Origin: an uncultured archaeon
GTDB lineage: Archaea; Iainarchaeota; Iainarchaeia; Iainarchaeales; VGJJ01
Assembly (NCBI GenBank): GCA_964427715.1
Contig: CAYRUV010000001.1
Span: forward strand, 124,125-188,124
DNA length: 64,000 bases
Reading direction: 5' to 3'
Both the position numbers and the translations under genes were made by a program. Positions 6,887-59,458 of the stretch are shown here, piece after piece. A model generated the notes under the pieces. The model saw only the letters and a program-made list of their open reading frames with translations. It had not been told where the DNA came from and ran no database searches. Position 1 is the first letter of the stretch, and each line of letters begins with the position of its first letter.

Positions 6887-6915
6887 TCCAGTTTGGGAAC
6901 AGAATACGATATTTT

Positions 6916-6960
6916 GAGGGGGGAATTTTCCCCCCTCCTATTTCATTTCTTTTTTTTCCC
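6916..6960. terminator. hairpin plus T-tract between convergent genes
   Basis: GAGGGGGG-AATTTT-CCCCCCTC perfect 8-bp stem (6916-6937) followed by a T-rich run. Confidence 0.5.
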
Positions 6961-6967
6961 GTTTCCT

Positions 6968-8263: not shown

Positions 8264-8517
8264 AGTGTATATCGCTCCCTGGGTTTGTTTATCGATGAAA
8301 AATCAGGCCTTTCGCGTCCAAACCTGCCAGGGCTTGGGAAAGGGGGCTATTGGGGGCGATTGGAGTTGATGCGTACAAGTAAAGCAGAGGGTGAAGCACC
8401 GGCTGTTTGAGTGAGTAAGGTACGCATCTAACCAAACTAGGCCCTTTAGGGTTTAAAATAGGGAATTGCAACCCGTTCAGAAGCCGGTATTAAATGGGAT
8501 AAAACCTCCCTGCTTGA

Positions 8518-8634
8518 ATGAAGAAGCCGGTTTCTAAGAAGAATGGAAAGAAGGATGAAGAGCCCAACCCCACCTTGCAAGGGAGAATCTTTCACATCTC
8601 GGGAAAGAAGCACCTGCCCAAGCGGAAGAAGTAG
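8518..8634 (+). CDS. 38-aa Lys-rich small protein below the ORF-track cutoff (MKKPVSKKNGKKDEEPNPTLQGRIFHISGKKHLPKRKK)
   Basis: Manual translation. TATTAAAT at 8488-8495 gives leaderless-type spacing; it fills the gap before the convergent aspS stop. Confidence 0.45.
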   Translation: MKKPVSKKNGKKDEEPNPTLQGRIFHISGKKHLPKRKK

Positions 8635-8643
8635 TGAATCCTT

Positions 8644-9960: not shown

Positions 9961-10018
9961 GGAGAAAGGAATACCCTTGAGGTGTTTTAAATGGTACTTG
10001 GCAACCCCTTTGTTTTCC

Positions 10019-12037: not shown

Positions 12038-12184
12038 GGGAAACGGATGTTGGGCCCCTTTTTATCCATTCGTGTGGGTGGGGAAAATGGAGATAGACGG
12101 AGAGGTTGGCGAAAGGATCGAGGGAAGGTGCTTCCCAATTCAATGGGAAACCGCGATCCCTCGACCCTCCTCGCAAGTGTGAAA

Positions 12185-12202
12185 GCCACGCGTGAGCGTG
12201 GC
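12185..12202 (-). terminator. 7-bp GC hairpin just downstream of the nrdJ stop
   Basis: GCCACGC-N4-GCGTGGC followed by TTT on the minus strand, 14 nt after the stop codon. Confidence 0.45.
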
Positions 12203-12216
12203 GGTGATTCATCGGT

Positions 12217-14463
12217 TCATACGGAGCAGTAGGAGTACCCGCAATCCATGCACGTGGCGCATCCCTCTTGCATGTGGAGCTTGTTGCCGTTGCATTTCGT
12301 GCAGGTCTTCATTTCTCCCTTGCTCACGTCATGGGTCTTGGCTGCGAGGACTTTCTGCTTGTATTGGTCCTCGACTTCCTTGTTACTTTTTCCCTTGACG
12401 TTGAGATTCAACACTTGGTTCTCGAATCCCTTGCTTCCGTCGCGGTAAATCGTAACGCCTTTGCATCCCTGCTTGTACGCAAGGGTGTAGACTTCCTTCA
12501 CGTCTTCCACTTGGGCGTCGTGCGAGAAGTTCACGGTCTTCGAGATGGCGTTGTCCGTGTACTTTTGCCAAGCCGCCTGCATGCGGACGTGCCAATACGG
12601 GGTAATGTCGTGGGCGCACACAAATGTCTTGCGCACATCCTCCGGGATTTCGTCGCAGTGTTGTAAGGTTCCTTCTGCGGCGATCTTCTCCATCAATTCT
12701 TCGGAATAGAATCCTCGCTTGATGGCGACTTCCTTGAAGATATCATTCACGTACAATAATTCCTGTCCATCCATCACACGCTTAACGAAGGAAATCGCAA
12801 ACAAGGGCTCGACTCCACTGGAACAGTCGGCAATCATGGAGATGGTTCCCGTGGGGGCGATGGTGATGCGGGCGCAATTCCGGAACGTGGGTCCATTCGG
12901 AACATCGTAGATGCTTCCCTTGATGTGGGGGAAGGGTCCTTTTTCTTTCCCTAATTCTTGAGACATTGCGTCGGCTTCTTCTCGGATGAATTTGACCATT
13001 TTCTCCGCGTACTGGCATCCTTCTTCCGAGTTGTAGGGGATGTTGAGCTTGAATAGCATGTCCGACCATCCCATAACACCTAATCCAATTCGTCGGTTTC
13101 CCTTGTTCATCTTTTCAATCTGGGGAATGACATACCGGTTCATGTCGATGGTGTTGTCCAGGAATCGCACGCTGGTGCGAATCGTTTCTCTCAACTCGTT
13201 CCACATGACCTCTCCCTGAGGAGTAACATACTTGGCGAGGTTGATGCTTCCCAAGTTACACGAATCATAGGGTCCTAGCGGCTGCTCTCCACAAGGGTTG
13301 GTGGCCTCAATCGTGTAGATGTGAGGGATGGGATTGTCTCGGTTGATTCGATCAATAAAGATAATTCCAGGATCGCCGGACTTCCATGCACTTGTAACTA
13401 ACTCCTCAAACAATGCTGCTGCGTTTTCTCTTCGCACCACTTGTTTGGTGTGGGGGTCGATCAAATCAAAGTCTTCTCCCTTCTCCACCGCCTCCATGAA
13501 TTTTTCCGTTAATGCAACCGAGATGTTGAAGTTGTTGATTTTAGTAATATCGTCCTTACAGTGAATAAACTCTCGAATGTCCGGGTGATCCACGCGTAGA
13601 ATTCCCATGTTGGCTCCGCGTCGTTTTCCTCCTTGTTTGATGATTTCCGTGGAGGCGTTGTAGACGCTCATGAAACCCACAGGACCGGTGGCCACTCCCT
13701 TCGTGGACTTGACCATGCTTCCTTTAGGTCGCAGGCGTGAAAAGTCAAACCCCGTTCCTCCACCGGATTGGTGAATCATGGCCTGGTGCTTCATGGTTTC
13801 GTAAATACCCTCAATGTTGTCCTCAATGGGTAAAACAAAGCACGCCGATAATTGTTGGATGGGCGTTCCCGCGTTCATTAAGGTGGGAGTGTTGGGCATG
13901 AATTCCATATTTTCCATGAGGGTGACAAACTTGTCCGACCACACTTGGACGGTTTCCTCATTTCCCCCATGTAATAATTCGGCCTTGGCGATGTTATCGG
14001 CTACGCGTCGCCATAATTGCTCAGGTGTCTCCTTCACTTTTCCTGTTTCGTCGCGCAACAAATAGCGTTCCTTCAATACGCGCAATTGGTTGATTCCAAC
14101 TTTCGTGTCAACCGGCATTCCAAGCATGGTTCGCTTGAGTTCTCTCTCTTCCGTTCTCTTCTGTCGGTATAGGATGTAGGATTTGGCGACCTTGGTTTCC
14201 CCTGCTTTCATCAATTCTTCTTCCACAATATCCTGGATGTGCTCCACCGTGGGAATGCTATCTTCCGGGTGGGCTTCCCTTTCTTGGATGAGTCGTTCGA
14301 TGACCTTATCGGAAATCTTCAAGGCCAGGCTCATGTTCTCCTTTCCCGTGGCGAAAAAGGCTTTGGATATCGCGCTCGTAATCTTATCCTGGTTCAGCGG
14401 GGCAATCGCGCCGCTTCTTTTTTTGATATTCGGGATGAGGGTTTGGATTTGGCTTGGATTCAT
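12217..14463 (-). CDS. nrdJ: class II (AdoCbl-dependent) ribonucleotide reductase with N-terminal ATP cone and C-terminal Zn ribbon
   Basis: ATP cone (IKKRSG...VEHIQDIVEEEL), PNTPTLMNAG, LSACFV, NPCGEQPL, TIAPTGTIS, GVTIYRDGS, CTKC...CMDCGYSYC. Confidence 0.92.
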   Translation of the reverse strand: MNPSQIQTLIPNIKKRSGAIAPLNQDKITSAISKAFFATGKENMSLALKISDKVIERLIQEREAHPEDSIPTVEHIQDIVEEELMKAGETKVAKSYILYRQKRTEERELKRTMLGMPVDTKVGINQLRVLKERYLLRDETGKVKETPEQLWRRVADNIAKAELLHGGNEETVQVWSDKFVTLMENMEFMPNTPTLMNAGTPIQQLSACFVLPIEDNIEGIYETMKHQAMIHQSGGGTGFDFSRLRPKGSMVKSTKGVATGPVGFMSVYNASTEIIKQGGKRRGANMGILRVDHPDIREFIHCKDDITKINNFNISVALTEKFMEAVEKGEDFDLIDPHTKQVVRRENAAALFEELVTSAWKSGDPGIIFIDRINRDNPIPHIYTIEATNPCGEQPLGPYDSCNLGSINLAKYVTPQGEVMWNELRETIRTSVRFLDNTIDMNRYVIPQIEKMNKGNRRIGLGVMGWSDMLFKLNIPYNSEEGCQYAEKMVKFIREEADAMSQELGKEKGPFPHIKGSIYDVPNGPTFRNCARITIAPTGTISMIADCSSGVEPLFAISFVKRVMDGQELLYVNDIFKEVAIKRGFYSEELMEKIAAEGTLQHCDEIPEDVRKTFVCAHDITPYWHVRMQAAWQKYTDNAISKTVNFSHDAQVEDVKEVYTLAYKQGCKGVTIYRDGSKGFENQVLNLNVKGKSNKEVEDQYKQKVLAAKTHDVSKGEMKTCTKCNGNKLHMQEGCATCMDCGYSYCSV

Positions 14464-14497
14464 GCGGGGACCACCTTTTTGTTATTCGCGCCTGACG

Positions 14498-14513
14498 GCT
14501 CTACATGTTGCGT
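14498..14513 (-). promoter_or_regulatory. possible NrdR-box-like site upstream of nrdJ
   Basis: ACGCAACATGTAGAG matches 11/15 positions of the bacterial NrdR consensus acaCwAtATaTwGtg. Single copy only; no nrdR in the window. Confidence 0.25.
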
Positions 14514-14722
14514 TTTGGGATGCGCCTGGAGTATTTTTTTCCAGGGGAGTATTGGGGTTCCTCTTGTAAGTTTACCCGACTATTAAAACGTATTTCATCC
14601 CCCCAAATTTCCGAAGCATTGGGCCAATGGAGGGATTCTAGTTTTTTTAGAAAAATTTCTTCAAAGGAAAATTTTTCCTCCCCGGCGACGTGATTATAAG
14701 GGGGCGGGAGAATTTTTTTCAT

Positions 14723-15661
14723 ATGACGAAATTCTCGCCGCGTTTAGTGGAGCGGTACAAGGAATTGATCTCCCAAGAAGAAGACCTCGAGGCCTTCTTA
14801 CAAGTCTCCAAGACCCGCTGGCCTAAAACGATTCACGTGAATCCGTTGAAAGCCGATTCCAAGTGGGTGGAGTCTCGTCTTCATTCAAGGGGGGTTTCTT
14901 TTTCCCAGCCCGAGCATTTCCCTCACACGTATTTTTTGGAAAACTTGTCTTCGTTAATTGGAGGATGGTGGGAGATCCAGAATGGGTTTTTTCATCCGCA
15001 GGAGTTAGCCTCTCAACTTCCCGCCCAGGTTTTACATCCACTCCCAGGAGAAACGGTCCTCGACATGGCCGCAGCTCCAGGGAATAAGACCATTCAGTTG
15101 GCCGGGCTGATGAAAAACGAAGGAAGCTTGTTGGCGTGCGAGCCCAACAAAGAAAGAGCCAAAGCCTTGAGGTACATGTTAGGTCGGGCCGGCGTAATGA
15201 ACGCCGGGATTGCCTTGCAGGATGCCTTAACCCTTCCCAATTCATTCGTGTTTGATAAGATTCTATTGGATGCTCCGTGTTCAGGAGAAGGATTGTTGAG
15301 AAAAAAGCCTCAAACCCTGAAGAGTTGGTCCGAGAAATATGTGGTGCATAAGGCCCAACTCCAAACAAAGCTCATCCTCAAGGCCGCCGACCTATTGAAA
15401 GAAGGGGGGACCCTAGTCTATAGTGTGTGTACCCTCTCCCCCGAAGAGTGTGAGGGGGTCCTCACGACGTTATTGCATGAACGAAAAGACATGCGCCTGG
15501 TTCCTTTCACCCTTCCCGGATTGAAGACTCGCCCCGGCTTATCGTCGTTTAGGAACCGGACCTTTTCTCATGGGATGGACCATGTTAAACGTCTATATCC
15601 CCAGGATACGAACACGCAGTCTTTCTTCGTGGCTAAGTTGGTCAAGGGGGGTTCCCGATGA
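14723..15661 (+). CDS. RsmB/NOP2-family RNA m5C methyltransferase
   Basis: QELASQ, DMAAAPGNKT, DAPCSGEG, YSVCT, PEECE. Confidence 0.9.
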   Translation: MTKFSPRLVERYKELISQEEDLEAFLQVSKTRWPKTIHVNPLKADSKWVESRLHSRGVSFSQPEHFPHTYFLENLSSLIGGWWEIQNGFFHPQELASQLPAQVLHPLPGETVLDMAAAPGNKTIQLAGLMKNEGSLLACEPNKERAKALRYMLGRAGVMNAGIALQDALTLPNSFVFDKILLDAPCSGEGLLRKKPQTLKSWSEKYVVHKAQLQTKLILKAADLLKEGGTLVYSVCTLSPEECEGVLTTLLHERKDMRLVPFTLPGLKTRPGLSSFRNRTFSHGMDHVKRLYPQDTNTQSFFVAKLVKGGSR

Positions 15662-16128
15662 AAATCCCCTTCTGTTCCCCCGGACATGCCAAGCGGTATA
15701 TTTCCTACCTGGTCTCACGGTATGGGATTCCTCTTTCTATTCTCAAACCATACCGTTGGATTCAACATAAGGAAAGTGTGTTTGCGGTCCACATGAACGC
15801 GCAAATTCTTGCAGACTCTAACGCGAACATTTTCGCCCTAGGATTATTGGCCTTCTCGGAAGGAACCCAATTCGAGCCCACCTCTAACTTCATCACCCTC
15901 CTGGGGGGTCACATTTCCCAGAATGTGGTTCCCATCAACGCGCACCAGATGGAGTCCTTTTTCCAGCGGAAGAAAATAGGGCGAGAATACTTGGATGTTT
16001 CAAAAGTCCTCTCGGACGGATGGGTGGCCGTATCATGCGAGGGAAAAGTCATCGGTTCCGCATCCCTGACCCGTAACCATTTAATTCCCAACCTTCCCCC
16101 CACGATGCATGCCGAGGAAAACGACTAA
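15658..16128 (+). CDS. PUA-like partner of the RsmB/RsmF methyltransferase (resembles the C-terminal domain as a separate protein)
   Basis: ATGA overlap with the upstream MTase; GWVAVSCEGKVIG...LIPNLP resembles RsmF/NIP7 C-terminal domains. Confidence 0.55.
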   Translation: MKIPFCSPGHAKRYISYLVSRYGIPLSILKPYRWIQHKESVFAVHMNAQILADSNANIFALGLLAFSEGTQFEPTSNFITLLGGHISQNVVPINAHQMESFFQRKKIGREYLDVSKVLSDGWVAVSCEGKVIGSASLTRNHLIPNLPPTMHAEEND

Positions 16129-16741
16129 GTCAGCGTCCCGCTCAACGAGTCCATACTGGTTGGTACTCGATGTTCACGGCGTTCTCATCCCCAGTTCCGA
16201 GAAATGGATCCTGGGTCAAGCGGCCAAGGACACTCACTCCTCATTGCTTGGTATTTACTTCAACTGGTTTCGATATTTGCATCAAACCCAAGTAGGTAAG
16301 CTCCCGGCAAAGGCATTCTATGAGCGTGTGTTTGGGAGGAAGCTGTCTCAGAAAGAATTTTCTCGCCTCATCATGTCGCGCTACGCCCAACGCGGGGTGT
16401 TCGATCCCAAAGTGGTTTCCCAATTGGCTCGCCTGAAGAAGAAGGGGTGGAAGTTGGCGATTCTTTCAGACATGAACTCCGCTCAAGCGTCCTATCATCG
16501 CGAGAAGAAACACTTTGCATTGTTTGATGAGGTTTTCCTTTCGTGTGAAACGGGTTTGATGAAACCCTTCCCGAGTGCGTTTGATGCGTTGCAGAAACGA
16601 ATGAATGCGCGCTCGGATCACATTGTGTTTGCGGATGATTTGTGGTTCAACACGTGGTCGGCCTCCCTGCACGGATGGAAGGCCGTCACGGTGTCGCAGC
16701 GCCGCAACCAATTGTTGCATTTCCTGCAAGATTTAGAGTAG
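16109..16741 (+). CDS. HAD-superfamily hydrolase
   Basis: LDVHGVL (motif I variant), LAILSD, GLMKP, VFADD. Confidence 0.8.
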   Translation: MPRKTTKSASRSTSPYWLVLDVHGVLIPSSEKWILGQAAKDTHSSLLGIYFNWFRYLHQTQVGKLPAKAFYERVFGRKLSQKEFSRLIMSRYAQRGVFDPKVVSQLARLKKKGWKLAILSDMNSAQASYHREKKHFALFDEVFLSCETGLMKPFPSAFDALQKRMNARSDHIVFADDLWFNTWSASLHGWKAVTVSQRRNQLLHFLQDLE

Positions 16742-16750
16742 GGATTTTGT

Positions 16751-16978
16751 TTACCCCATTCGTTCGTTCAACCAGTTGTAGATGAGCGCAAATACTCCCA
16801 ATCCAATGGCCATGGCAATTCCCATTCCTACTCCTCCGGTGGTTTGGCCCATCATCCCATAGTATGCGCCCATCATTCCGTACGAGCCGCCCATGAAGAA
16901 TCCCATTACTAATCCAAGGATTCCCCCGGCGAGTGCGAAGGCCAAAGGATTGAGTCTCATTGTTTTTTCGTTCTTCAT
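16751..16978 (-). CDS. small Met/Gly-rich 2-TM membrane protein, last gene of the copper operon
   Basis: ATGA overlap with the copA stop; [19 protein letters not shown]...GMMG repeats. Confidence 0.6.
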
Positions 16979-19167
16979 TTTTTTTCCTCCATTTTTTTGA
17001 ATCGTATGCGTCGCAGCAGGAGGGCGTTGGTGACCACGGACACACTGCTCAGGGCCATGGCCCCTCCTGCGATGATGGGAGAGAGCAACCACCCCGTATA
17101 AGGGTAGAGGATTCCGGCGGCGATGGGAATGCCTAACACGTTATACACGAGGGCCCAGAACATCCCTTGCTTGATTTTTCCCATGGTGGCCTTTCCCAAG
17201 TGGAGGGCATTCACCACATCATAGGGGTTGCCTTTCATGAGCACCACGTCTCCGGCCTCGATGGCGATGTCGGTGCCGCTGCCCATGGCAATTCCTAATT
17301 CGGCCTGAGCCAGGGCGGGGGCGTCATTGATTCCATCTCCCACGAATGCGACCTTTTTTCCTTGCGCTTGAAGTTTTTTCACATATTCGGCTTTTTGCTC
17401 GGGCAGCACGTGAGCAAACACATTGGTTATTCCCGCGCGAGCGGCAATCGCTTTGGCGGTGCGCGCATTGTCTCCGGTAATCATCCACACGTCCTTGTGC
17501 AGGTCCTTAAGCTCCTTCACGGTAGCGGCGGAGGATTCCTTGAGTACGTCCGCAATGCCAATAATGGCAAGCACTTTTTTTCCACTGGATAGGACAACCA
17601 CCGTCTTTCCTTCATTTTCCCACTTTTCATTCATACCCTCATACTCATCGAGGGGAATTTGTTGTTCCTCCGTCCAGCGAATATTGCCTAATCGATACGC
17701 CTTTCGCTGGTGGGTTCCCTCCACTCCCTTCCCGAAGTGGGCCTTGAACCCGTCTATTTTAGAGGCGGGTATTTTCTTGGATTGTACATACTGCACGACG
17801 GCCTGCGCGAGGGGATGCTCCGATTTTTCTTCCAATCCTCGGAGGATTCCCAGAATGTCCTTTGTTTCTTTCTCATTCTTCACCCACACGTCCGTGACCT
17901 GAGGTTTTCCCTGCGTGATGGTTCCCGTCTTGTCGAACACAATCGTATCAATCGCGTGCATGGTTTCAAGGGCCTCGGCACCTTTGATGAGTATTCCATT
18001 CTCCGCCCCCACTCCCGTGCCCACCATAATCGCAGTGGGAGTAGCAAGTCCCAATGCGCAGGGGCATGCAATCACGAGGACGGAGACACTGGTAACTAAT
18101 GCAAATGCCAGGGTGGCCTGCCCGAATGTCATCCATCCAATGAAGGTCAAGAGTGCAATCCCAATCACAATAGGGACGAACACCGCGGATATTTGGTCCG
18201 CGAATCGCTGAATGTCTGCCTTGCTTCCTTGGGCATCCTCGACCAATTGAACAATTCGTGCCAAGACGGTATTTTTTCCCACTCCCGTGGCTTTGAATGT
18301 GATGCTCCCATTCAGGTTGATGGTTCCCCCGATGACCGTGTCTCCTTTTCTCTTTTCGGCTGGGATGCTTTCTCCCGTAATCATACTTTCATCAATGGCG
18401 GTCATTCCGTCCGCGATGATTCCATCCACCGGAATGCGTTCGCCGGGGCGCACGACAATCATGTCATTGAGTATGACTTCCGAAATGGGAATTTCCATTT
18501 CCTTTTTTCCCCGCATGACACGTGCCATCTTGGGAGACAAATCCATGAGTTTTCGAATGGCCTCGCTGGTTTTTCGCTTGGCTAAGGCTTCCAAGTATTT
18601 CCCTAGAATCACGAGCGTGATGAGCACGGCCCCCACCTCAAAGTATTGTTCGTCTCCAAACCCGAAGAGGGTGGCTACGCTGTAGAAGTACGCGGCGCTA
18701 GTTCCAAGTGCGATAAGCGTATCCATACTCGCGGTCCTATTTTGCAAGGCCGTCCACGCTCCTAAGTAGAAGTGTCGTCCGATGTAGAATTGGACGGGCG
18801 TGGCTAATGCGAACAATACCCACTCACGCTGGGGAAAGTCCATGAGGAACATCCCAATGATTAATGCCGGGAATGCAAGCACACTTCCAATGATGAGCTG
18901 GTTCTTCAACTCCGCGATTTCCTTCGCTCGTATTTCCTGTTCGCGCTGGGAGGAAATGTCCAGGCTCGCCGAGTACCCTCTTTTGTTCACGGCCTCCATG
19001 AGGTCTTTTTCTCCGGCCTGCTTCTCATCGTATTCCACGCGGGCCTTTTGCGTGCCGTAATTCACATTGGCCTCTTTCACGCCGGGCACTTTCTGCAATG
19101 ATTTGGTGATGAGCACGGCACAGCTCGCGCAGTGCATTCCATCAATGGCCATTTCTATTTTTTTCAT
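16975..19167 (-). CDS. copA: P1B-1 type Cu(I)-translocating P-type ATPase
   Basis: HMA GMHCASC, TGES, CPC, DKTGT, GDGIND, YN and MALSS transmembrane ligands. Confidence 0.93.
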
Positions 19168-21844: not shown

Positions 21845-21947
21845 GTTCTCAACTCCTAGAATTAGATGTTACAATAAATATATCGGACATACGATATTAA
21901 AAGTGGGTTGGAAAATCTCGAAAAATAACCCTAGAAAAATAGACGAG

Positions 21948-22021
21948 TGCACCGGAGAGGATTTGAACCTCTGACCTCCCGATTATCAGTCGGGTGCTCT
22001 ACCAGGCTAAGCTACCAGTGC
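21948..22021 (-). tRNA. tRNA-Ile(GAT)
   Basis: Cloverleaf GCACTGG/CCGGTGC-A, anticodon arm CCCGA-CT GAT AA-TCGGG, T loop TTCAAAT; no intron, no CCA. Confidence 0.95.
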
Positions 22022-22048
22022 AACCTTTTGCGAAAAGGTTGATCAAAA
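22021..22048. repeat. CTTTT-N3/4-AAAAG hairpin element, copy A (abuts the tRNA-Ile 5' end)
   Basis: CAACCTTTT-GCG-AAAAGGTTG perfect 9-bp stem followed by ATCAAAA. Confidence 0.65.
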
Positions 22049-22156
22049 GCGTTAGAATCCCCTACGGGAATTCAGACTCTCCTAATCCCTTTTTGCTTCC
22101 AAGAAAACGGCCTCCGAATCCTTTTAAAGGGCACCTTGCGGGGGCGGTCCTATAAT

Positions 22157-51930: not shown

Positions 51931-52594
51931 TCGTGTCTCCACTCTCATTTCGCGTGTGTTTGGCGATGATGCTGGCCGCGCTCACGCTGGGCTCGATATC
52001 GTCGGCTTTTTCTTGGAATACAATTCCCTTCATTCCTTTTCTCAATGGTTTTCCGTCCATCAATGTCATGCTTTCGGGTGAGAGTTTTTCTTTGAGTGAG
52101 TGGAAAGCCAGTGCGATTTCCGCTTGGATGTCATTCATCGTGAGTCCTTTTTTTCGCAGCTCATCTATCATGCGTGCGCTCACGGATACGCGCATATCAA
52201 TCAGTGCATGTTGCGTGGCTTCTTGGTAGTGCTTGGCAATGTTGCTCGTTTTTTTTGAGTCGCGTAGTCCGCGCAACGCGTTTCGCGGTCCTAACACTCC
52301 TCCCACCACTAAGGGTCCTGTCTTCTCTCCGCGTCCCACTTCATCAATCCCAAACACCCGTTCGTCGTTTTCTTTTTCCATCCAGGAGAGGAGTTTTTCC
52401 TTGACGGCTTTCTCCACTTCCGCGTGTTTGGCGGCAATGACGATTTTTCCGGAGGTGTACACCGTCACCACGCTATCCCCCACTTTGTGTCGGGCTTTTT
52501 CGTACTGTGAGGGGGTTGGTAGGGAGGGATATTTGTCCAGCTCCTTGAGTACGGTCTTGGTTTCTTGGGGGGTGAAGGATAGGGTCACGACCAT
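51896..52594 (-). CDS. rnhB: type 2 ribonuclease H with HIII-like (TBP-like) N-terminal domain and short C-terminus
   Basis: YEKARHKVGDSVVTVYTSGKIVI; GIDEVGRGE, DSKK, MDG, KADD..PSVSAASIIAK. Confidence 0.8.
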   Translation of the reverse strand: MVVTLSFTPQETKTVLKELDKYPSLPTPSQYEKARHKVGDSVVTVYTSGKIVIAAKHAEVEKAVKEKLLSWMEKENDERVFGIDEVGRGEKTGPLVVGGVLGPRNALRGLRDSKKTSNIAKHYQEATQHALIDMRVSVSARMIDELRKKGLTMNDIQAEIALAFHSLKEKLSPESMTLMDGKPLRKGMKGIVFQEKADDIEPSVSAASIIAKHTRNESGDTNERKTWKSKND

Positions 52595-52652
52595 GGGAGG
52601 GACGACCCCTCCTGAGTATTTAATGGTCTTCCGTTGCGAGAAGAAAAAGTTC

Positions 52653-52712
52653 GGGTCAGACGTGAGTTAATTCATCATCCTTGCGTCAGTCGGGGTTTAC
52701 GTCATCATTCCC
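52653..52712 (-). ncRNA. box C/D guide sRNA
   Basis: GGGA-ATGATGA(C)-CGTAAACCCCGA-CTGA(D')-CGCAAGG-ATGATGA(C')-ATTAACTCACGT-CTGA(D)-CCC: four perfect boxes, two 12-nt guides, terminal stem. Confidence 0.9.
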
Positions 52713-52742
52713 ACCTAGTAGGGGGAGGGAGACTTCTAAAAG

Positions 52743-53039
52743 CTAATCAAATGGGCGCGTGACCGAAACATAGGATAGGATGGCGGCCAGGGAGAGGTTC
52801 ACAATCAATGCGGCGGCGAGGATGGGTTTGAACTCGCTGAAGGCTTGAGCGTTGTATTGGAGCGTCTCGAGCATGGTGGATAGGCAGTATGCGAAGGCCT
52901 GGAGCATTCCAAACGAGAGGATAATCCAATAGGCACGGCTCTCTCCCGCGTGGGGAATCGATTTCCATGCGAATCGGAACGCGAAGAGGAATGCCACGGC
53001 TCCAATGGCATCCATGATAGGGATGAGGTCATACATCAT
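52743..53039 (-). CDS. small 3-TM membrane protein
   Basis: Three hydrophobic helices; 1-nt overlap with the upstream 3-TM gene. Confidence 0.6.
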   Translation of the reverse strand: MMYDLIPIMDAIGAVAFLFAFRFAWKSIPHAGESRAYWIILSFGMLQAFAYCLSTMLETLQYNAQAFSEFKPILAAALIVNLSLAAILSYVSVTRPFD

Positions 53040-53344
53040 TATTTCTCCCTCGATAATCGTTCCATTTTCTTGCGCATGAACTGTTGTCCTTCATAGTTGC
53101 GCTGGGTCCAATACAGGAAGAGGACTCCTCCTCCTAGAATTCCGACGAGGTGATAGAGAATGTGAAAGGACTCGTTCCAGGTCATCAGCCAGATGTTTTG
53201 GGAAATGATTCCTATCACAATGGCGGTGAATCCGAAAAAGAATATTTTGGATGAGCGGGAGGCTCGATAATCCAGGATAGCCGGGATATACCCTAGCACC
53301 GCGAAGAGCAATACCAATAATTCCGCGAAGGGAAGGGGGTTCAT
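53039..53344 (-). CDS. small 3-TM membrane protein
   Basis: Three hydrophobic helices, basic tail; TTTTTTATA promoter upstream. Confidence 0.6.
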   Translation of the reverse strand: MNPLPFAELLVLLFAVLGYIPAILDYRASRSSKIFFFGFTAIVIGIISQNIWLMTWNESFHILYHLVGILGGGVLFLYWTQRNYEGQQFMRKKMERLSREK

Positions 53345-53402
53345 CTTTTCATCCAGCGAATCGACCTATAAAAAAGTGTTCCATTCCAATTCAAAAAAAT
53401 GA

Positions 53403-53455
53403 ATGCGCGGGGCAGGATAGGTACCGGCCTTTTGTCAAAAGCCCCTGGAAAAGGA
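53403..53455 (-). repeat. duplicated tRNA-Leu(CAG) 3' end plus hairpin element copy C
   Basis: 53403-53418 matches 53461-53476 at 15/16 nt; the spacer holds CCTTTT-GTC-AAAAG. Confidence 0.7.
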
Positions 53456-53461
53456 ATTCCA

Positions 53462-53545
53462 TGCACGGGGCAGGATTTGAACCTACGAAGGCACTAAGCC
53501 ACCAGGACCTGAACCTGGCCCCTTAGACCGCTTGGGTACCCGTGC
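53462..53545 (-). tRNA. tRNA-Leu(CAG)
   Basis: GCACGGG/CCCGTGC-A; CCAGG-TT CAG GT-CCTGG; long variable arm. Confidence 0.95.
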
Positions 53546-53584
53546 GTGAAGGGATTAGTGGGAAACAAGTCATATAAAGGGTGT

Positions 53585-54166
53585 TCAGGCCCACTCGATT
53601 TTGATCACATGGAGTGCTTCAAAGGATAGTTTGAGGTAAGAAACCACCTTCGTTTTGAAGTGTCGTTTGTGGAGGGCCGTTTGGATATTCTCAATTCCAT
53701 TCAGGGAAGACACGAGCAAGAGACACATGCCCTTCTCCCCCAAGTGTTTGGGGAATTGCGACATGAATCGGTTGATGACTTCCCTGCCTTCCTCTCCTCC
53801 ATCCACCTCCATCCATTTGAGTTCATCGGAAGGAACGTAGGGGGGGTTGAACACCATCACGTCAAATTTTCCCTTGATTCCCTCGAATAAGTTTCCAAGG
53901 GTGCATTGCGTGTGGGCATGAGCAAAATAGGTCTCAATCATTTTTTGGGTAGTGCGTATCGCCGCGGGGTTAAGATCGATGGCATGCACGCTCTCGGCGC
54001 CGCCCAACAATAATGCAGCGGTCTGGATGCCGCTTCCGCATCCCATGTCTAGGCATTTCTTCCCGCGCACGTTTTCGTTTTCGATGGCATGGGCCAATAG
54101 CCAGGAGTCATCACTCGGCGCATACCCTTCGTCGGGCTTCTTGAATCGGATTGTTTCCAACTTCAT
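53585..54166 (-). CDS. HemK2/PrmC-type protein-glutamine N5-methyltransferase
   Basis: YAPSDDSWLL, LDMGCGSG, IDLNP, FNPPY, DGGEEGREVI. Confidence 0.88.
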   Translation of the reverse strand: MKLETIRFKKPDEGYAPSDDSWLLAHAIENENVRGKKCLDMGCGSGIQTAALLLGGAESVHAIDLNPAAIRTTQKMIETYFAHAHTQCTLGNLFEGIKGKFDVMVFNPPYVPSDELKWMEVDGGEEGREVINRFMSQFPKHLGEKGMCLLLVSSLNGIENIQTALHKRHFKTKVVSYLKLSFEALHVIKIEWA

Positions 54167-54276
54167 TATGTTATAGTGGCGTAAATCAACGCATTTAAAT
54201 GAATTCATTTTCACTCAGGGTGCGTTCCAGAAAATGAAAATAATCGACGCAAAAACCTCCCAATAGGTGTACCTCG

Positions 54277-54588
54277 ATGAATGTTAGTGCCTTATTTCAC
54301 ACAGCCTCCGCTCGGATTGAAGAGAAGATATACGGAATCCAAGTGGGATTATCCGTGTATGTTGGACTCGTGAGAGCCTCCATCCAAGAAAAGATTCCCC
54401 TGCTCCAAAATCACGTTTGGGCCGCAGTGGGGATTTCATTTTTCGTCGTCTTGGCGATTCAATCCATTATTTTGATCTTGTCGTTGTTCACATTCCTTGT
54501 GAATGGGACCATGGGTCTTTCTCGATTGGTGGTGAAGTTCACAAAAGATACCATCCGTGTGGTTCAACCCCTGCGTGCGGTTCGTTGA
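54277..54588 (+). CDS. hypothetical membrane protein
   Basis: One long hydrophobic segment; fills an intergenic gap. Confidence 0.45.
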   Translation: MNVSALFHTASARIEEKIYGIQVGLSVYVGLVRASIQEKIPLLQNHVWAAVGISFFVVLAIQSIILILSLFTFLVNGTMGLSRLVVKFTKDTIRVVQPLRAVR

Positions 54589-54629
54589 TTAAGAATATCT
54601 TAAAATAGTCAAAATGGCGCTATGCGTGA

Positions 54630-54977
54630 ATGCCCTCTCCCATACGCAAAACTACTCCTGCAGTAGCCCGCCAGTATCTTGAGATGCTTTCCCGCGATCC
54701 TCCTAAAGTCACGAGTAGTATGAGGGTCGTGATTCAAATCGTGCGTGGTATTCGCGATGGGACGATTCTTCCGGCAGATATGCGTGGTCGTGTAGACTCA
54801 TATCGGGAGGTGCTGCAGGATCCCGTTTTGAGGGCAGCGGTATATCGCGTCCTCGACAAGCGTGCACAGAGGGGGGCGATGCAGGTGGATAAGTGGAGGG
54901 TTGGTTTCAGGATAAATGGATCGAGGGCGCCCAACGGGGGTCGCCGTCGACCTCCTTCGAAGTTTCGTTCTCGATAA
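54630..54977 (+). CDS. basic Arg-rich hypothetical protein
   Basis: 115 aa; TTAAAA about 25 nt upstream of the ATG. Confidence 0.55.
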   Translation: MPSPIRKTTPAVARQYLEMLSRDPPKVTSSMRVVIQIVRGIRDGTILPADMRGRVDSYREVLQDPVLRAAVYRVLDKRAQRGAMQVDKWRVGFRINGSRAPNGGRRRPPSKFRSR

Positions 54978-54988
54978 TAGTAATATTA

Positions 54989-55062
54989 CGCCGGTGCGGG
55001 GATTTGAACCCCGGTCGAGAGCTTCGGAAGCTCTAATGCTATCCAGGCTACACCACACCGGC
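54989..55062 (-). tRNA. tRNA-Arg(CCG)
   Basis: GCCGGTG/CACCGGC-G; AGAGC-TT CCG AA-GCTCT. Confidence 0.95.
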
Positions 55063-55079
55063 TGACTTTTTTTTAGAAA

Positions 55080-55163
55080 TGCAGGAAGGAGGATTCGAAC
55101 CTCCGAAGGCACTAAGCCAATAGGGCCTAAACCTATCCCCTTAGACCGCTTGGGTATTCCTGC
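55080..55163 (-). tRNA. tRNA-Leu(TAG)
   Basis: GCAGGAA/TTCCTGC-A; ATAGG-TT TAG GC-CCTAT; long variable arm; tandem with tRNA-Arg. Confidence 0.95.
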
Positions 55164-55217
55164 GTGCTAGTATGCGTGCGCGGATGCCCATAAAAACCCG
55201 GCTTTTCTTTTCCATGG

Positions 55218-55847
55218 GTGAATCGCACCATCAAGCTATTGCTTATCGCCGACGTCTTCACCACTACGGGTTTTGGTCTCATCGAGCCCATTCTCGCTAT
55301 CTACATCAATGGTACTCTTACCGGTGGATCATTGGTGGCGGCGGGACTGGCGAGTACGTTATTCCTCATCACCAAGTCGGCCGTCCAGTTGCCCTTTTCT
55401 CGCTACGTGGATGCGCATGATCACAAAATTAAGTGGTTGTTAGTCGGGACATTCATCATTTCATTAGTCCCATTCCTCTACATCTACGCCACGGATGTGA
55501 TGCATTGGTTCTTGGCGCAAATCCTATATGGAATCGGTGCCGGACTCGCGTATCCCACGTGGTTATCCTTATGGTCCACGCACCTGGACAAAAAACATGA
55601 AGGGTATGAGTGGAGTCTCTATTCAACGTCCGTGGGAATCATGATGGCCATCACCGCAACGCTAGGGGCGGTTCTCGCGGAAAGCGTGGGGTATCAATGG
55701 ACCTTCATCAGTGTAGGTTTCCTTTCCCTGGTTGGATGTGGTATTTTATTATTCCTTGAAGAAAAGGCGGAAAAGAAATCCCGACCGGTTCCGTGGGCAC
55801 ATTATCATTCTCACAAAAAAGCCAATCCGGGGGATCGACACGGGTAG
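55218..55847 (+). CDS. half-size (6 TM) MFS-like membrane protein
   Basis: Motif-A-like SRYVDAHDHK, about 6 TM, stop after the sixth helix; His-rich tail. Confidence 0.75.
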   Translation: MNRTIKLLLIADVFTTTGFGLIEPILAIYINGTLTGGSLVAAGLASTLFLITKSAVQLPFSRYVDAHDHKIKWLLVGTFIISLVPFLYIYATDVMHWFLAQILYGIGAGLAYPTWLSLWSTHLDKKHEGYEWSLYSTSVGIMMAITATLGAVLAESVGYQWTFISVGFLSLVGCGILLFLEEKAEKKSRPVPWAHYHSHKKANPGDRHG

Positions 55848-55866
55848 TTATCAGAATTGAAAACTA

Positions 55867-56844
55867 CTAGTCTCGTTCTTGCTTGATTAGGTCGCCGAAG
55901 TTAATGCGTTCGGGTGGATTTTCTTCAATGTCTTCCCGCAATCCCTTTTCTCCGTCGCTGTCTGCTGACCACTTTCTGGGTTGGGGTTCCGGCCGCCCGG
56001 ATAATTTGGAGTTGGACGGAACACCCTTGAAGAGTGAATCCAGTGTTCCCTCAAAAAAGGGCGTGCTGTTTCCGGGAGAAGAACCGAAAGAGGAATTGGA
56101 TTGTCCGCGGAAGAAAAAGAAAAGCAACCCCACTACGATCAATGCGCCCACTCCTAACAAGGGAAGATTTCCCCCGCTAACGAGACCAGTCCCATTCAGG
56201 AAGGGGATGTTGAATCCCTGTTGGTCGGTTTGCGTTAACATCGAGGGTTCGGGCTTCTCAATAATATCCAAGCGATTGGTCACGTCATTCAGTGCCGTTT
56301 GTGTGGTTTCTTTTACGGAGGATAACTCGGATTGGGTCTCGTAGACTTTTTGCTCGGTGGTGGTAGTAAATGTCTCCAACTCCTCCACGCGCGTCGAGAG
56401 GGTGGTCATGCTCGCGTCGAGGGATTCCTTCTCACTCGCGTCTAATGCATCCATCACGTTGAGGGTGACGGTTTGTTTTTCCGACTTGGGTCCTTGCGTC
56501 TGCACTTCAATGAGGTGGGGTCCCTTGGCGAACCCTGTATGTGTGACAATGGCGGTTAATCCCTCATTCGTTTTGGGATCCGCATCCCATGTGGCGCAGT
56601 GGATGATGAAGGGAATCCACTCGGGTTGTACTGCGCATGTCCCCGTAGGGTATACGGTGGCCACGAGGATGTTATCGAAGTGAATCGTCGCGGTGTTGAA
56701 CGCATCCGTCGCAGGAAGGGTGGCGCGGAATGTGAAGGGGGCGAATGTTTGCATCTTCTCCGGAGACTGTATCTCGAGCGCGAATGCGTGCGTGGAAAAT
56801 AATGCCAATGTGATGAGAATGAGGAGTTTGTTGAGGGTCTTCAT
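55867..56844 (-). CDS. exported Ig-like plus coiled-coil protein with TM anchor and cytoplasmic tail
   Basis: Signal peptide MKTLNKLLILITLALFSTHAFA, Cys pair, heptad region, TM LLGVGALIVVGLLFFFF. Confidence 0.7.
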   Translation of the reverse strand: MKTLNKLLILITLALFSTHAFALEIQSPEKMQTFAPFTFRATLPATDAFNTATIHFDNILVATVYPTGTCAVQPEWIPFIIHCATWDADPKTNEGLTAIVTHTGFAKGPHLIEVQTQGPKSEKQTVTLNVMDALDASEKESLDASMTTLSTRVEELETFTTTTEQKVYETQSELSSVKETTQTALNDVTNRLDIIEKPEPSMLTQTDQQGFNIPFLNGTGLVSGGNLPLLGVGALIVVGLLFFFFRGQSNSSFGSSPGNSTPFFEGTLDSLFKGVPSNSKLSGRPEPQPRKWSADSDGEKGLREDIEENPPERINFGDLIKQERD

Positions 56845-56964
56845 GGTCGTCATTATTCCTTTTTGCATATTTAAGGAAGGGCGGTTCGTGCGCTACATAA
56901 GAAGCAGAGCGGAGTTCATAATGCCCGTTTTTAAGGCTATTTTGGTGGTTTTTGAGTAATAGCC

Positions 56965-57036
56965 AGGCCCGTAGTGTAACGGCTATCACGGGGCATTCAC
57001 ACTGCCCAGACGGCAGTTCAACTCTGCCCGGGCCTA
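56965..57036 (+). tRNA. tRNA-Val(CAC)
   Basis: AGGCCCG/CGGGCCT-A; GGGCA-TT CAC AC-TGCCC; GGCAG-TTCAACT-CTGCC. Confidence 0.92.
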
Positions 57037-57060
57037 TTGTGGAATGAGCAAATCCATTTA

Positions 57061-57122
57061 GCTTTTTTTTCGGTCGAGCCTTTTCTCTAAAAGGGTCGGT
57101 TCCGATTCTGCCCGGGCCTATT
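57061..57122 (+). repeat. hairpin element copy D plus duplicated tRNA-Val 3' end
   Basis: TCTGCCCGGGCCTATT at 57023-57038 repeated exactly at 57107-57122; CCTTTT-CTCT-AAAAGG at 57079-57094. Confidence 0.75.
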
Positions 57123-57173
57123 TTTGATTTTGCGATTTCTGGCCTGCTTTTAATAGTCTTTTTTCCTTCCTGC

Positions 57174-57506
57174 GTGATGGTCTTTCGCAAGCTCCTGGAG
57201 AGAAAACTCCGTTCCCTTAAGTTGAAGCGGGAACGCGTAGTCCGTTTGTATGATCGGCGACTCAAGCATATTGCGGAGGAGTTGGCGCGCTTGAACAAGG
57301 AATATGCTTCCGCCCCTAGTGGGCGTGCGGCCGAGATCCGTGAGCGGTTGGGTCGTTTGCACGTGCAAGAGGTTTTCACGCGCAGCTATCGGGTTTCTGA
57401 GCCCCGAGAGATGGATGTGAGTATTCGGAAAATTGAGGCACGTTTATCTCGCCCCTCCTTGGGTGAGCGATTCAGGGGTTGGCTTAAGAATCGAAGGAGG
57501 AAATAA
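57174..57506 (+). CDS. basic Arg-rich helical hypothetical protein
   Basis: 110 aa; TTTTAATA about 25 nt upstream; stop abuts the convergent gene. Confidence 0.55.
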   Translation: MMVFRKLLERKLRSLKLKRERVVRLYDRRLKHIAEELARLNKEYASAPSGRAAEIRERLGRLHVQEVFTRSYRVSEPREMDVSIRKIEARLSRPSLGERFRGWLKNRRRK

Positions 57507-58154
57507 TCAGCAGGCCAGCAATTGATTGAGGGTGCTCTTGCTCTGCACGCCCTCGTAGACCTTTTCCCCAATCACTAGCGAGGGGGTTTTCTCAATGGAG
57601 TAATCCTTCACCAACAAGTCCACCGGCTCAATGCCCCCTTCCACGGGGAATGCGAATATTTGGATTTGTTGATGGCACGAGTCGCGTATCTCATTGAGTA
57701 TTTGCGCCTGAATCAAACACTCGTTGCAGTTCGCCCCGTCCGGGAAGAAATACAAAATAGGCTGCTTGAGGGCATTGGATTCCGGACACTTGTATTCGAA
57801 TTTTTTCAAAGAGAAATACAACTTTGCATTGGCAGCTTGGAATCGCTGGCGCACGGTGGAGTAATCGTTCTGCAGTCCATTCTGTCTCGCCTGGTCCAGT
57901 AAACTCAATAGGGGAAATAGTCGTTCATTCTGCTTCTGGATGTGCTCCGTGAGCACTTCACAATACCGCTGCGTGTCGCCGGTGGACTCGATGTATTCTA
58001 AGTAGGCATCCACGGCCCCCTCTTCCGCAATCACGGTATCAATTTTCCCCAAGAGGGTGTTGTTGCGCTCCCCTTCCAATGCGGTAGATAGAAGGAACCA
58101 CGCCGTGAGGATGAGGAGGGTGAGAATCCCTGCACGTACAAATAGGTTTACCAT
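57507..58154 (-). CDS. membrane-anchored thioredoxin-fold protein
   Basis: N-terminal TM; ILYFF...CNEC..QAQIL; YSIEKTPSLVI; 7-nt overlap with the GT2 gene. Confidence 0.72.
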   Translation of the reverse strand: MVNLFVRAGILTLLILTAWFLLSTALEGERNNTLLGKIDTVIAEEGAVDAYLEYIESTGDTQRYCEVLTEHIQKQNERLFPLLSLLDQARQNGLQNDYSTVRQRFQAANAKLYFSLKKFEYKCPESNALKQPILYFFPDGANCNECLIQAQILNEIRDSCHQQIQIFAFPVEGGIEPVDLLVKDYSIEKTPSLVIGEKVYEGVQSKSTLNQLLAC

Positions 58155-59458
58155 TTTTGCACCCCTCCTCGAATGGCATTCACTAAACTATACACTTGGA
58201 TGAATACGATAAAGGCCCAATACACGCTGAGGAAGAGCAATACCCCTGCGAGGGAAATGTTCTGGACCTTTGCCCCCGCGGCGCGGGTGCCCATGTAGGC
58301 TAACAAGAGCGTAATTCCCACAATCATCAAGTAAAGGAAAAGGTGACTGTTCAGGTAGAGCGTGGGCACTACCAGGGTTTCGAATGCGATGGTGGAATAC
58401 GAGGATACCGTTCCCCACGCTGTGTGCCAGTATTCCAATCCCATTCTCACGGCGAGCATGAGGAAGAGAATCGCAGACAAGTCTAGCACCACGCGCAGGG
58501 GGAAGAAGAATCGGAAGAATAGTTTTTTCGTGGAGAACATCTCGCTGCGGTACTTGTAGATCGTCTGCCACCCCCCATAGGCCCATCGCTTGCGCTGGCG
58601 GAATAATTTGTTGATCGTGTCCGGGACTTCCGTGAATACTTGGGCGTGTGGCTCCAGTACGACACGATATCCTAGTTTGTGTAAGTGGAAGGTGATTTCC
58701 ATATCCTCCGTGATGTTGTGCTCGTCATACCCTCCCATTCTCACTAATGCCTCTTTCGTGTAGGCGGATAGGGGTCCCGGCGTCACGTATAATGAATCCA
58801 TCGTGTTGAGGGCGGAATTCTTCAGTCCAAATTCGAGGAAGTATTCCACTTCCTGTATTTTTTGAAGCAACCCATGGTTGTTCTTCACGCGTACAATCGT
58901 GGTGACCGCACCCACATTTTCAAATGCATAGAAGTTGGGGATAAGTTTCATGATGGCATCCGGGGACGGATACGAGTCTCCGTCCATCGCCACGACGATT
59001 TCCCCCTTGGCTTTCTGGAGGGCGGTATTAATCGCGCGGGCTTTTCCTTGGTTCTTTTCAAACCGAATGAAATCGATTCCTTTTCCCTTGAAGTCTTTTA
59101 CAATCTCGGGGGTTTGGTCGGTACTGGCATCATCTACAACCATGATTTGCATTTTTTTGGGATACTCCAATTTGGTCACGCACTCCAAGCAGCGGCGCAA
59201 ACTCTCTCCTCGGTTGAAGGCTGGAATGATGATGGAGACGGTGGGCCACTCCTTGATTGTGGGAATCGCTTTCTTGTCTCGCTCCATATATGCGAGGAAG
59301 AAGAAGCATCCCATGTAGAGGAACAATACGGAGAACGTAATCATGATGGGAAACAAGGGGAGGGTAAACACAACCCATGTTACCACGAGGGCGAAAGCAA
59401 AGTATAGGGTGAGTGCGGCGGCCTGCCATTTGGAGAATTCGGTCTTGAATTCCTTCAT
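58148..59458 (-). CDS. processive family-2 glycosyltransferase (PgaC/HasA/CesA-like)
   Basis: IIIPAFN, VVDDASTD, GKA.AIN, MDGD, TPGP, ITED, QRKRW; TM helices at both ends. Confidence 0.88.
   Translation of the reverse strand: MKEFKTEFSKWQAAALTLYFAFALVVTWVVFTLPLFPIMITFSVLFLYMGCFFFLAYMERDKKAIPTIKEWPTVSIIIPAFNRGESLRRCLECVTKLEYPKKMQIMVVDDASTDQTPEIVKDFKGKGIDFIRFEKNQGKARAINTALQKAKGEIVVAMDGDSYPSPDAIMKLIPNFYAFENVGAVTTIVRVKNNHGLLQKIQEVEYFLEFGLKNSALNTMDSLYVTPGPLSAYTKEALVRMGGYDEHNITEDMEITFHLHKLGYRVVLEPHAQVFTEVPDTINKLFRQRKRWAYGGWQTIYKYRSEMFSTKKLFFRFFFPLRVVLDLSAILFLMLAVRMGLEYWHTAWGTVSSYSTIAFETLVVPTLYLNSHLFLYLMIVGITLLLAYMGTRAAGAKVQNISLAGVLLFLSVYWAFIVFIQVYSLVNAIRGGVQKW

Follow-up and report, generated by a model that had tools for sequence, protein, structure and literature searches.

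The tRNA-Val(CAC) gene's 3′ end is present twice in the DNA considered here, a stretch of 64,000 nucleotides (the window) that forms part of an 898-kb archaeal assembly of 19 contigs, and the second copy is probably the footprint of a small, protein-less and hairpin-rich insertion element. The duplicated sequence, TCTGCCCGGGCCTATT, consists of the final 14 bases of the tRNA and 2 trailer bases. Its copies (57023-57038 and 57107-57122) are exact and start 84 bp apart, as the first-pass annotation of this DNA had stated. That annotation also pointed to a tRNA-Leu with the same build, which is borne out at tRNA-Leu(CAG), where the 3′ end ATCCTGCCCCGTGCA (53476-53462) is repeated as ATCCTGCCCCGCGCA (53418-53404). 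The closest public relatives of the host are Candidatus Iainarchaeum / Diapherotrites metagenome-assembled genomes (DPANN archaea). The element was followed through 17 genomes of the genus, namely the genome under study (G000) and 16 others (G001-G016), among which G011 is the nearest relative of G000. Units, each comprising an element and the adjoining copy of the 3′ end, were located by pattern search and inspection of individual loci; the repeat table, the palindrome arm counts and several comparisons are based on hand-transcribed sequences.

A scan of all tRNA genes for downstream copies of their own 3′ ends, which the annotation had proposed, finds such copies behind at least 7 of the 43 tRNAs of G000 (Val-CAC, Leu-CAG, Leu-CAA, Leu-GAG, Ala-TGC, Lys-TTT and Arg-TCT). 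Under a strict rule (last 15 nt of the tRNA, at most 2 mismatches, no more than 150 nt downstream), four of the 43 qualify, where 129,000 random windows predict 0.013; the Ala-TGC, Lys-TTT and Arg-TCT units come from a looser inspection. The Arg-TCT unit is split by the break between contigs C16 and C18, with the palindrome and the fragment at the C18 end, and its parts are joined in G011. Across the 17 genomes, units lie behind at least 18 tRNA species, often in tandem: Val-CAC; Leu-CAG, -CAA, -GAG and -TAG; Ala-TGC and -CGC; Lys-TTT; Arg-TCT, -CCG and -CCT; Ser-GCT, -TGA and -CGA; Gln-CTG and -TTG; Asn-GTT; and Trp-CCA. Beyond the genus the strict pattern is rare.

The order of parts is the same everywhere: tRNA, short trailer, T-run, a palindrome designated B, the junction GG-TTCY, the copy of the 3′ end and a further T-run. 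Oligo-T is a termination signal in archaea. Full-length elements measure ~80-110 bp and contain a short hairpin resembling a T-arm, then a GC hairpin and a T-run, a palindrome of the form YCRASC-TTTT-loop-AAAA-GGYYGG and a terminal TTCY, the conserved left hairpin following immediately upon the repeat. Shorter elements of 43-68 bp, including that of the Val unit, miss most of the left part. The Val element ends in TTCCGAT, which resembles a T-loop with one extra base. The similarity of the Val and Leu spacers, noticed at first reading, turns out to reflect a conserved palindromic module (AAAAGG + YYGGT...) that is present at many loci.

Comparison of relatives shows that the element is an insertion/deletion polymorphism. 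At Leu-CAG the site is filled in G000, and G011 is 58 bp shorter within flanks that are ~95% identical, its tRNA being followed directly by TTCATTTTTTT. The 58 extra bases of G000 are the element plus one repeat copy and lie at the exact G011 junction. At Ser-GCT, G011 carries a 57-bp unit and G000 has a bare site. The Val locus itself is uninformative for gain or loss, since in G011, where tRNA-Val lacks the unit, the whole downstream gene is also different. The DNA between tRNA-Val and a conserved thioredoxin-like gene (57507-58154, minus strand), window positions 57037-57506, differs between the two genomes: G000 has the unit and a 110-residue coiled-coil open reading frame (ORF; 57174-57506), and G011 (locus L002) has a different ORF, for a small membrane protein.

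A protein-coding gene is also a target. In G000, an 82-bp full-length element sits within the last codons of ispF (C8:~6380-6480), between GTGATTCTTTTGTACAAG and GTGATTCTTTTATACAAG, and is flanked by an 18-19-bp duplication; the same insertion is present in G011. The first copy of the G000 gene end reads into the element and gains a new 13-residue tail, and the second copy retains the original ...VILLYKK-stop. The site is uninterrupted in G007 and G002. In G016 a different, related element occupies the same place in reverse orientation with a repeat of ~20 bp, and this is an independent event. It provides the best evidence for gain rather than loss, while the direction at individual sites may be either. 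Beginnings of tRNA genes are affected as well: in G004 (L191, contig C86) and G008 (L201, contig C92) a duplicate of the first 16-19 nt of tRNA-Ser stands upstream of the gene, and the palindrome separates the two copies. Here the element is antisense to the tRNA and therefore puts no T-run between promoter and gene; judging from this arrangement, the tRNA must presumably be made with a long leader.

The geometry of the duplication is regular. In the repeat table its median length is 17 nt, typically 16-17, with an overall range of 6-23 that includes decayed copies, and the youngest copies are exact over 16-18 nt. At tRNA 3′ ends the left edge typically falls at T-loop position 57/58 and the right edge at the discriminator plus 0-2 nt, or up to 6 nt beyond the discriminator where the trailer is also duplicated. 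The element-side junction GG-TTCY is constant irrespective of the T-loop of the tRNA concerned. The tRNA stays complete with the gene-proximal copy; the distal one is a surplus fragment. Fragments track the local tRNA down to species-specific changes of the T-stem and acceptor (Leu-CAG in G000 versus G001), in agreement with the earlier remark that each duplicate matches its own tRNA. The 3′-end copy is best interpreted as a duplication of the target that arose on insertion, and not as cargo or a classical attachment (att) scar, because one family has many targets, the geometry is constant, and ispF and tRNA 5′ ends are targets too. The element is not strictly tRNA-specific, given the ispF insertion, the duplicated tRNA 5′ ends and the dispersed palindrome subfamilies described below. 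The annotation had thought of a minimal tRNA-targeting mobile unit or scar, or of templated duplication; the recurrence of the family and its gain and loss between relatives sustain this idea in part, and the restriction to tRNAs has to be dropped. Contrary to what the annotation named as grounds for refutation, numerous further tRNAs of the lineage have the arrangement, and the similar spacers share a conserved palindrome.

Units frequently stack. Three stand behind tRNA-Ser(TGA) of G003, two identical 60-bp units behind tRNA-Lys of G012 and two identical units of ~110 bp behind tRNA-Ala(CGC) of G005. An array on contig C23 of G012 (L046, G012:C23:11800-13588) interleaves at least five copies of one tRNA 3′ fragment, ATTGAATCTCTCCCCCCGTG, with hairpin units; it also holds a ~1.1-kb segment containing an ORF with an Arg/Lys-rich tail, and the tRNA itself lies beyond the contig end. 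Five of six arrays have perfect copies next to the tRNA and decayed ones farther away, the exception being Ser-CGA of G003.

The palindrome falls into subfamilies with the arms GGTCGAGC/GGTCGG, GGTCAAGC or CGCCAACC/GGTTGG, CCCCGGGC/GGCCGG and GATCAAAC/GTTTGG. Arm pairs were counted on hand-anchored palindromes, as stems of variable length lose register under MAFFT. Among 28 copies anchored on the T/A tracts, pairs 3 and 4 alternate between A-T and G-C from one subfamily to another; a conserved G.G mismatch is frequent at pair 2, as is a T.G wobble at pair 6. In a comparison with bulge-helix-bulge motifs, made by eye and with no formal search, the palindrome shows a 1x1 G.G mismatch and lacks bulges of 3 nt. 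In 28 of 30 palindromes the sense strand forms a more stable fold than the antisense strand (mean -10.9 vs -8.4 kcal/mol, p = 6.5e-6), a bias which suggests that the sense strand functions as RNA or in single-stranded DNA form. The whole 90-nt Val unit is no more stable than shuffled sequences (z = 0.06); the hairpin evidence for the unit is comparative, not thermodynamic. A known RNA family was rejected as the identity of the unit, as Rfam matches only tRNAs, whether in 52000-58500 at an E value of up to 1 or across the whole window at gathering score. The subfamilies are also dispersed multi-copy repeats with up to 17 matches per genome, and many of these dispersed palindromes are intergenic, after stop codons and near GC hairpins and T-runs.

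Palindromes are also found in front of tRNA genes. They abut position +1 of the intact tRNA-Ile(GAT), Leu-GAG, Ser-GGA and Ala-GGC genes (in G000 at C5:16979, C16:3262 and C1:69152+ for the latter three; Table 1 for Ile) and end in AAAAGGTT before G+1. Most tRNA genes of G000, which encode no CCA, have a TATA-like CCnTTTTTAAnG ~37-45 nt on their 5′ side. The four genes in question show no other TATA box, and for this reason the palindrome with its T-run may serve as their promoter. A leaderless-tRNA promoter forced by loss of RNase P was rejected, since RNase P RNA is present in G000 and in 15 of the 17 genomes overall.

The reading of the Val duplicate as the footprint of an insertion element suggests the following mechanism. 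Insertion would proceed through nicks staggered by ~17 bp and subsequent gap filling, which would generate the target-site duplication. At tRNAs the conserved T-loop GGTTC could serve as the recognition or anchor sequence, comparable to the T-psi-C-loop segment for the Aciduliprofundum casposase. With such anchoring the duplicated segment would reach exactly to the gene end and the tRNA would survive; insertions elsewhere in the tRNA would be lethal, and presumably are not seen for that reason. New units would enter beside the real T-loop, which would produce the polarity of the arrays, and a unit would be lost by precise deletion between two repeat copies. After insertion the hairpins and T-runs may act as trailer or terminator structures in the RNA, and this would explain the bias of the stems toward the sense strand. 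The enzyme would be either supplied in trans from outside these assemblies or a host protein that has gone unrecognised. A bolder version of this proposal, which is possible but should be taken as tentative, is that the units constitute an undescribed protein-less mobile class: an unrecognised integrase would use the T-loop as a leader-like anchor and duplicate the next ~17 bp, building polar stacks like CRISPR arrays without Cas1.

Several observations weigh against this reading. No enzyme that would explain insertion was found in the 17 genomes, among which no search for DDE transposase families was made. Cas1 (PF01867) is present only in G015, which is nearly devoid of units, with no candidate in G000; reverse transcriptase (PF00078) is absent from all 17; and the Y1 transposase (PF01797) occurs in three but not in G000. 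G000 and G011 have no PF00589 match other than a XerA-like recombinase. The left end varies among short copies, and the ends of well-delimited units, compared by eye, are not inverted repeats of each other. For dispersed palindromes away from tRNAs a flanking duplication was looked for and could not be demonstrated. No near-identical donor copy was found for the apparently young Ser-GCT unit, and the polymorphism could therefore be a deletion in G000 instead of a gain in G011.

Some candidate agents were set aside. Cas1 or a casposase was rejected, being limited to the nearly unit-free G015, whose casposon has ends unrelated to those of the units. Retro-insertion by target-primed reverse transcription fails for lack of a reverse transcriptase in any of the 17 genomes. 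Mobilisation of the type of repetitive extragenic palindromic (REP)-associated tyrosine transposases (RAYT) or insertion sequence (IS) 200 was dismissed, as Y1 transposases are found in 3 of 17 genomes and the insertions carry 16-19-bp duplications. A MITE (a miniature transposable element with inverted repeats) is disfavoured by the lack of inverted terminal repeats and by a median duplication of 17 bp instead of 2-10 bp. A viral source was likewise rejected: the GC-subfamily palindrome has no match in viral contigs, and the 15 matches to a looser pattern, all in contigs without a tRNA, look like chance.

Tyrosine integrases offer a conventional explanation, in which an element entered at the T-loop/3′ end (attL/attR), later lost its interior and left its att-proximal arm, the palindrome, together with the displaced 3′ end. 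A direct repeat of the 3′ part of the tRNA does flank the insert on both sides, and partial tRNA genes left behind by integrating elements are a well-established phenomenon (PMC9897764). A tyrosine recombinase (PF00589) of high-scoring XerA-like type occurs in all 17 genomes and extra integrases in ~12; in relatives, those of ~440-500 residues are encoded immediately downstream of tRNA-Cys, tRNA-Arg(TCG) and tRNA-Met. Low-GC cargo inserts with repeats of tRNA 3′ ends also exist in the genus (~790 bp at Cys in G000, ~780 bp at Ser-CGA in G003, and the ORF-bearing array on C23 of G012). Nevertheless, four of six integrase-bearing loci examined lack a palindrome match, and the cargo-bearing attR copies (Cys; Ser-CGA fragment A) have no palindrome. 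In the integrase-bearing islands of relatives no palindrome stands beside the tRNA, nor does an att repeat occur in the stretches examined. One palindrome family at 18 tRNA ends and at ispF would demand an attP with a matching core for each, and the related elements at ispF lie in both orientations. Finally, G000 and G011 differ by units, yet both have only the XerA-like recombinase; the cognate tyrosine recombinase that the annotation suggested looking for was not found. Origin of the units as decayed integrase remnants is thus considered unlikely. Beside this stand a few observations on the cargo inserts. In G000 (C1:48095-48921) the low-GC insert of ~790 bp behind tRNA-Cys contains a small ORF and is followed by a second copy of the tRNA's 3′ end, CTATCGGCCCCCGCT, with the palindrome absent; this insert is a classical island remnant. 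G003 has an integrase gene just behind the orthologous tRNA-Cys, and the repeat of its ~780-bp insert at tRNA-Ser(CGA) begins at the same T-loop position.

The duplications might also have arisen with no dedicated enzyme, if hairpin trailers provoke template switching or microhomology repair: the module would be copied from elsewhere, synthesis would return at the T-loop GGTTC, and positions 57-73 would be copied again. Such a process would account for a right junction that is always GGTTC, common to the element end and the T-loop, for the variable left junction, element length and repeat length (12-23 nt), for unit ends that by eye are not inverted repeats, and for the failure to find a transposase, Cas1 or reverse transcriptase as agent. 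It does not readily account for the tight centring of young repeats on 16-17 nt or for full-length copies in which a conserved left hairpin comes right after the repeat. The ispF junctions have little microhomology, this site has been hit twice independently, and a donor with the expected flanks was not found; template switching accordingly appears rather improbable. Another view regards the unit as a selected small gene: the palindrome would act as its compact promoter or leader, and the fragment would give rise to a short RNA imitating a tRNA 3′ end. Alternatively, the whole unit would be a selected terminator or insulator. In favour, the fragment begins at the would-be +1, with hairpins and a T-run behind each fragment; the stems are biased toward the sense strand; three palindrome-plus-fragment copies of G003 are identical beside differing trailers; and the palindrome abuts +1 of intact tRNAs (Ile-GAT, Leu-GAG, Ser-GGA, Ala-GGC) that are presumably essential and lack another TATA box. 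Set against this, fragments decay (G003 f3, G007 f2 and G000 Lys), the Gln-CTG fragment of G001 does not track the changed acceptor of its tRNA, units are dispensable between sister genomes, and the fragments have non-canonical T-loops. Between T-run and +1 lie anywhere from 27 to 36 nt, RNase P RNA is present and makes leaderless starts unnecessary, and the ispF duplication would go unexplained, all of which makes a selected small gene very improbable.

Casposon integration near the T-loop of tRNA genes appears to be the closest analogue of the insertion proposed here. The casposase of A. boonei needs a 15-bp duplicated segment together with the neighbouring 18 bp, which encode tRNA-Pro's T-psi-C loop, and casposons form tandem arrays in Methanosarcina, where new copies would be expected to enter on the side of the tRNA (PMC5137440). 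The likeness covers the target at tRNA-gene 3′ ends, a proposed upstream recognition of the T-psi-C loop, duplication of an adjacent segment (14-15 bp in casposons) in a geometry that resembles theirs without matching it, and arrays split by repeat copies. The units differ in lacking Cas1 in 16 of 17 genomes, including G000, and in being non-coding and only 43-110 bp long. Their duplication of 16-17 bp starts inside the T-loop, whereas that of casposons is 14-15 bp near the acceptor end, and their ends are not inverted, unlike the 44-nt inverted ends of the G015 casposon. This casposon (L222 = G015:C1:45000-64900, 6624-17096) is a 10.4-kb Cas1-solo element directly behind tRNA-Arg(TCG). Its inverted ends are 98% identical (L222 6709-6752 / 17039-17082), and its 14-bp target duplication, GTCGCTTTTTTATT, includes the last 5 nt of the tRNA. 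It has no CRISPR array, and most of its ORFs have no Pfam match.

The units share with tyrosine-integrase attL/attR sites of the T-loop sublocation class (including decayed elements of cis-mobilizable, CIME-like type and arrays formed by accretion) an intact tRNA with a displaced fragment that starts in the T-loop, as well as tandem stacking, and such integrases and cargo islands occur within the genus. Here, however, one family occurs at 18 tRNA species and a protein gene, in both orientations (ispF); its repeat follows the local target instead of an element-borne core, and no integrase is present in the genomes whose units differ. REP sequences and bacterial interspersed mosaic elements, IS200/IS605-derived elements and MITEs resemble the units as short, non-coding, multi-copy hairpin repeats that form palindrome mosaics, lie at gene ends and fall into subfamilies. 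No target duplication accompanies REP and IS200-type elements, that of MITEs measures 2-10 bp and their ends are inverted, and the units duplicate 16-19 bp between ends that are not inverted; moreover, the Y1 transposase of RAYT/Y1 systems is missing from 14 of the 17 genomes. The likeness to CRISPR spacer acquisition is one of formal logic only: each insertion duplicates a fixed-length segment beside a recognition sequence, which makes the array polar, its newest unit being the one closest to that sequence. The ‘repeat’ in the units is the tRNA's own 3′ end, the inserts belong to one repeat family and are not foreign DNA, and there are no cas genes.

The searches of the literature returned general papers on att fragments and casposons, none of which describes these units. 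A protein-less hairpin element of 43-110 bp that makes 16-19-bp duplications at no fewer than 18 tRNA ends and at the end of a protein gene, in polar arrays and with no recognisable transposase, is therefore not described in the literature searched. If this interpretation is correct, very small archaeal genomes harbour an active insertion of short DNA at gene ends by an enzyme yet to be named, in which the gene is preserved by duplication of its last ~17 bp; this would bear on how compact DPANN genomes take up DNA. It also bears on the origin of tRNA-linked integration, the T-loop-adjacent duplicated segment being a candidate for the ancestral target logic in the line from casposons to CRISPR adaptation, and on the origin of partial tRNA genes and of long tRNA leaders and trailers. 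In practical terms, such repeats fragment assemblies (C16 and C18 end within one unit), and tRNA annotation is confounded by the surplus 3′ fragments and the stacks of hairpins.

Table 1. Features of the Val and Leu units and of the palindrome at tRNA-Ile(GAT), in window coordinates
Feature	Position	Strand	Basis or remark
tRNA-Val(CAC), intact, no encoded CCA	56965-57036	+	ARAGORN; Rfam RF00005, 59 bits
Val direct repeat copy 1, TCTGCCCGGGCCTATT: 3′ strands of T-stem and acceptor, discriminator, 2 nt of trailer	57023-57038	+	Exact 16-mer
Val inserted element, 68 nt, between the repeat copies	57039-57106	+	Same architecture at other tRNAs; sister units with filled and empty sites
Val small trailer hairpin, TGGA-atgagcaaa-TCCA	57040-57056	+	Counterpart of the first hairpin in full-length units
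Val T8 run	57063-57070	+	T-run precedes the palindrome in every unit
Val palindrome B, CGGTCGAGCC-TTTT-ctct-AAAA-GGGTCGG, subfamily GGTCGAGC/GGTCGG	57071-57099	+	Arm co-variation; strand bias
Val T-loop-like element end, TTCCGAT	57100-57106	+	Family consensus GG-TTCY ahead of the repeat
Val direct repeat copy 2, TCTGCCCGGGCCTATT	57107-57122	+	Exact; followed by host T-run 57121-57125
tRNA-Leu(CAG), intact	53462-53545	-	ARAGORN; Rfam
Leu sister unit: 43-nt element (53461-53419) and repeat copy	53404-53461	-	Alignment with G011, which lacks exactly these 58 bp
Leu palindrome, CCAGGGGC-TTTT-gac-AAAA-GGCCGG	53448-53424	-	Part of the Leu-CAG sister unit
Palindrome TTTTGATCAACC-TTTT-cgc-AAAA-GGTT, directly adjoining tRNA-Ile(GAT) (intact, 21947-22021) at its 5′ end	22022-22052	-	Match at G000 C1:146144-146176

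Two further observations concern a repeat and a tRNA. On contigs C19, C24 and C43 of G006 (L048-L050), a multi-hairpin repeat of ~190 bp is nearly identical at the Arg-CCG, Ser-GGA and Gln-TTG loci, and one instance of it is reversed and lies between two tRNA-Arg 3′ fragments. G000 also has a predicted tRNA-Ile with the anticodon TAT (C1:194109-194183), a type that is uncommon in archaea, where AUA is usually read by a modified CAU tRNA.

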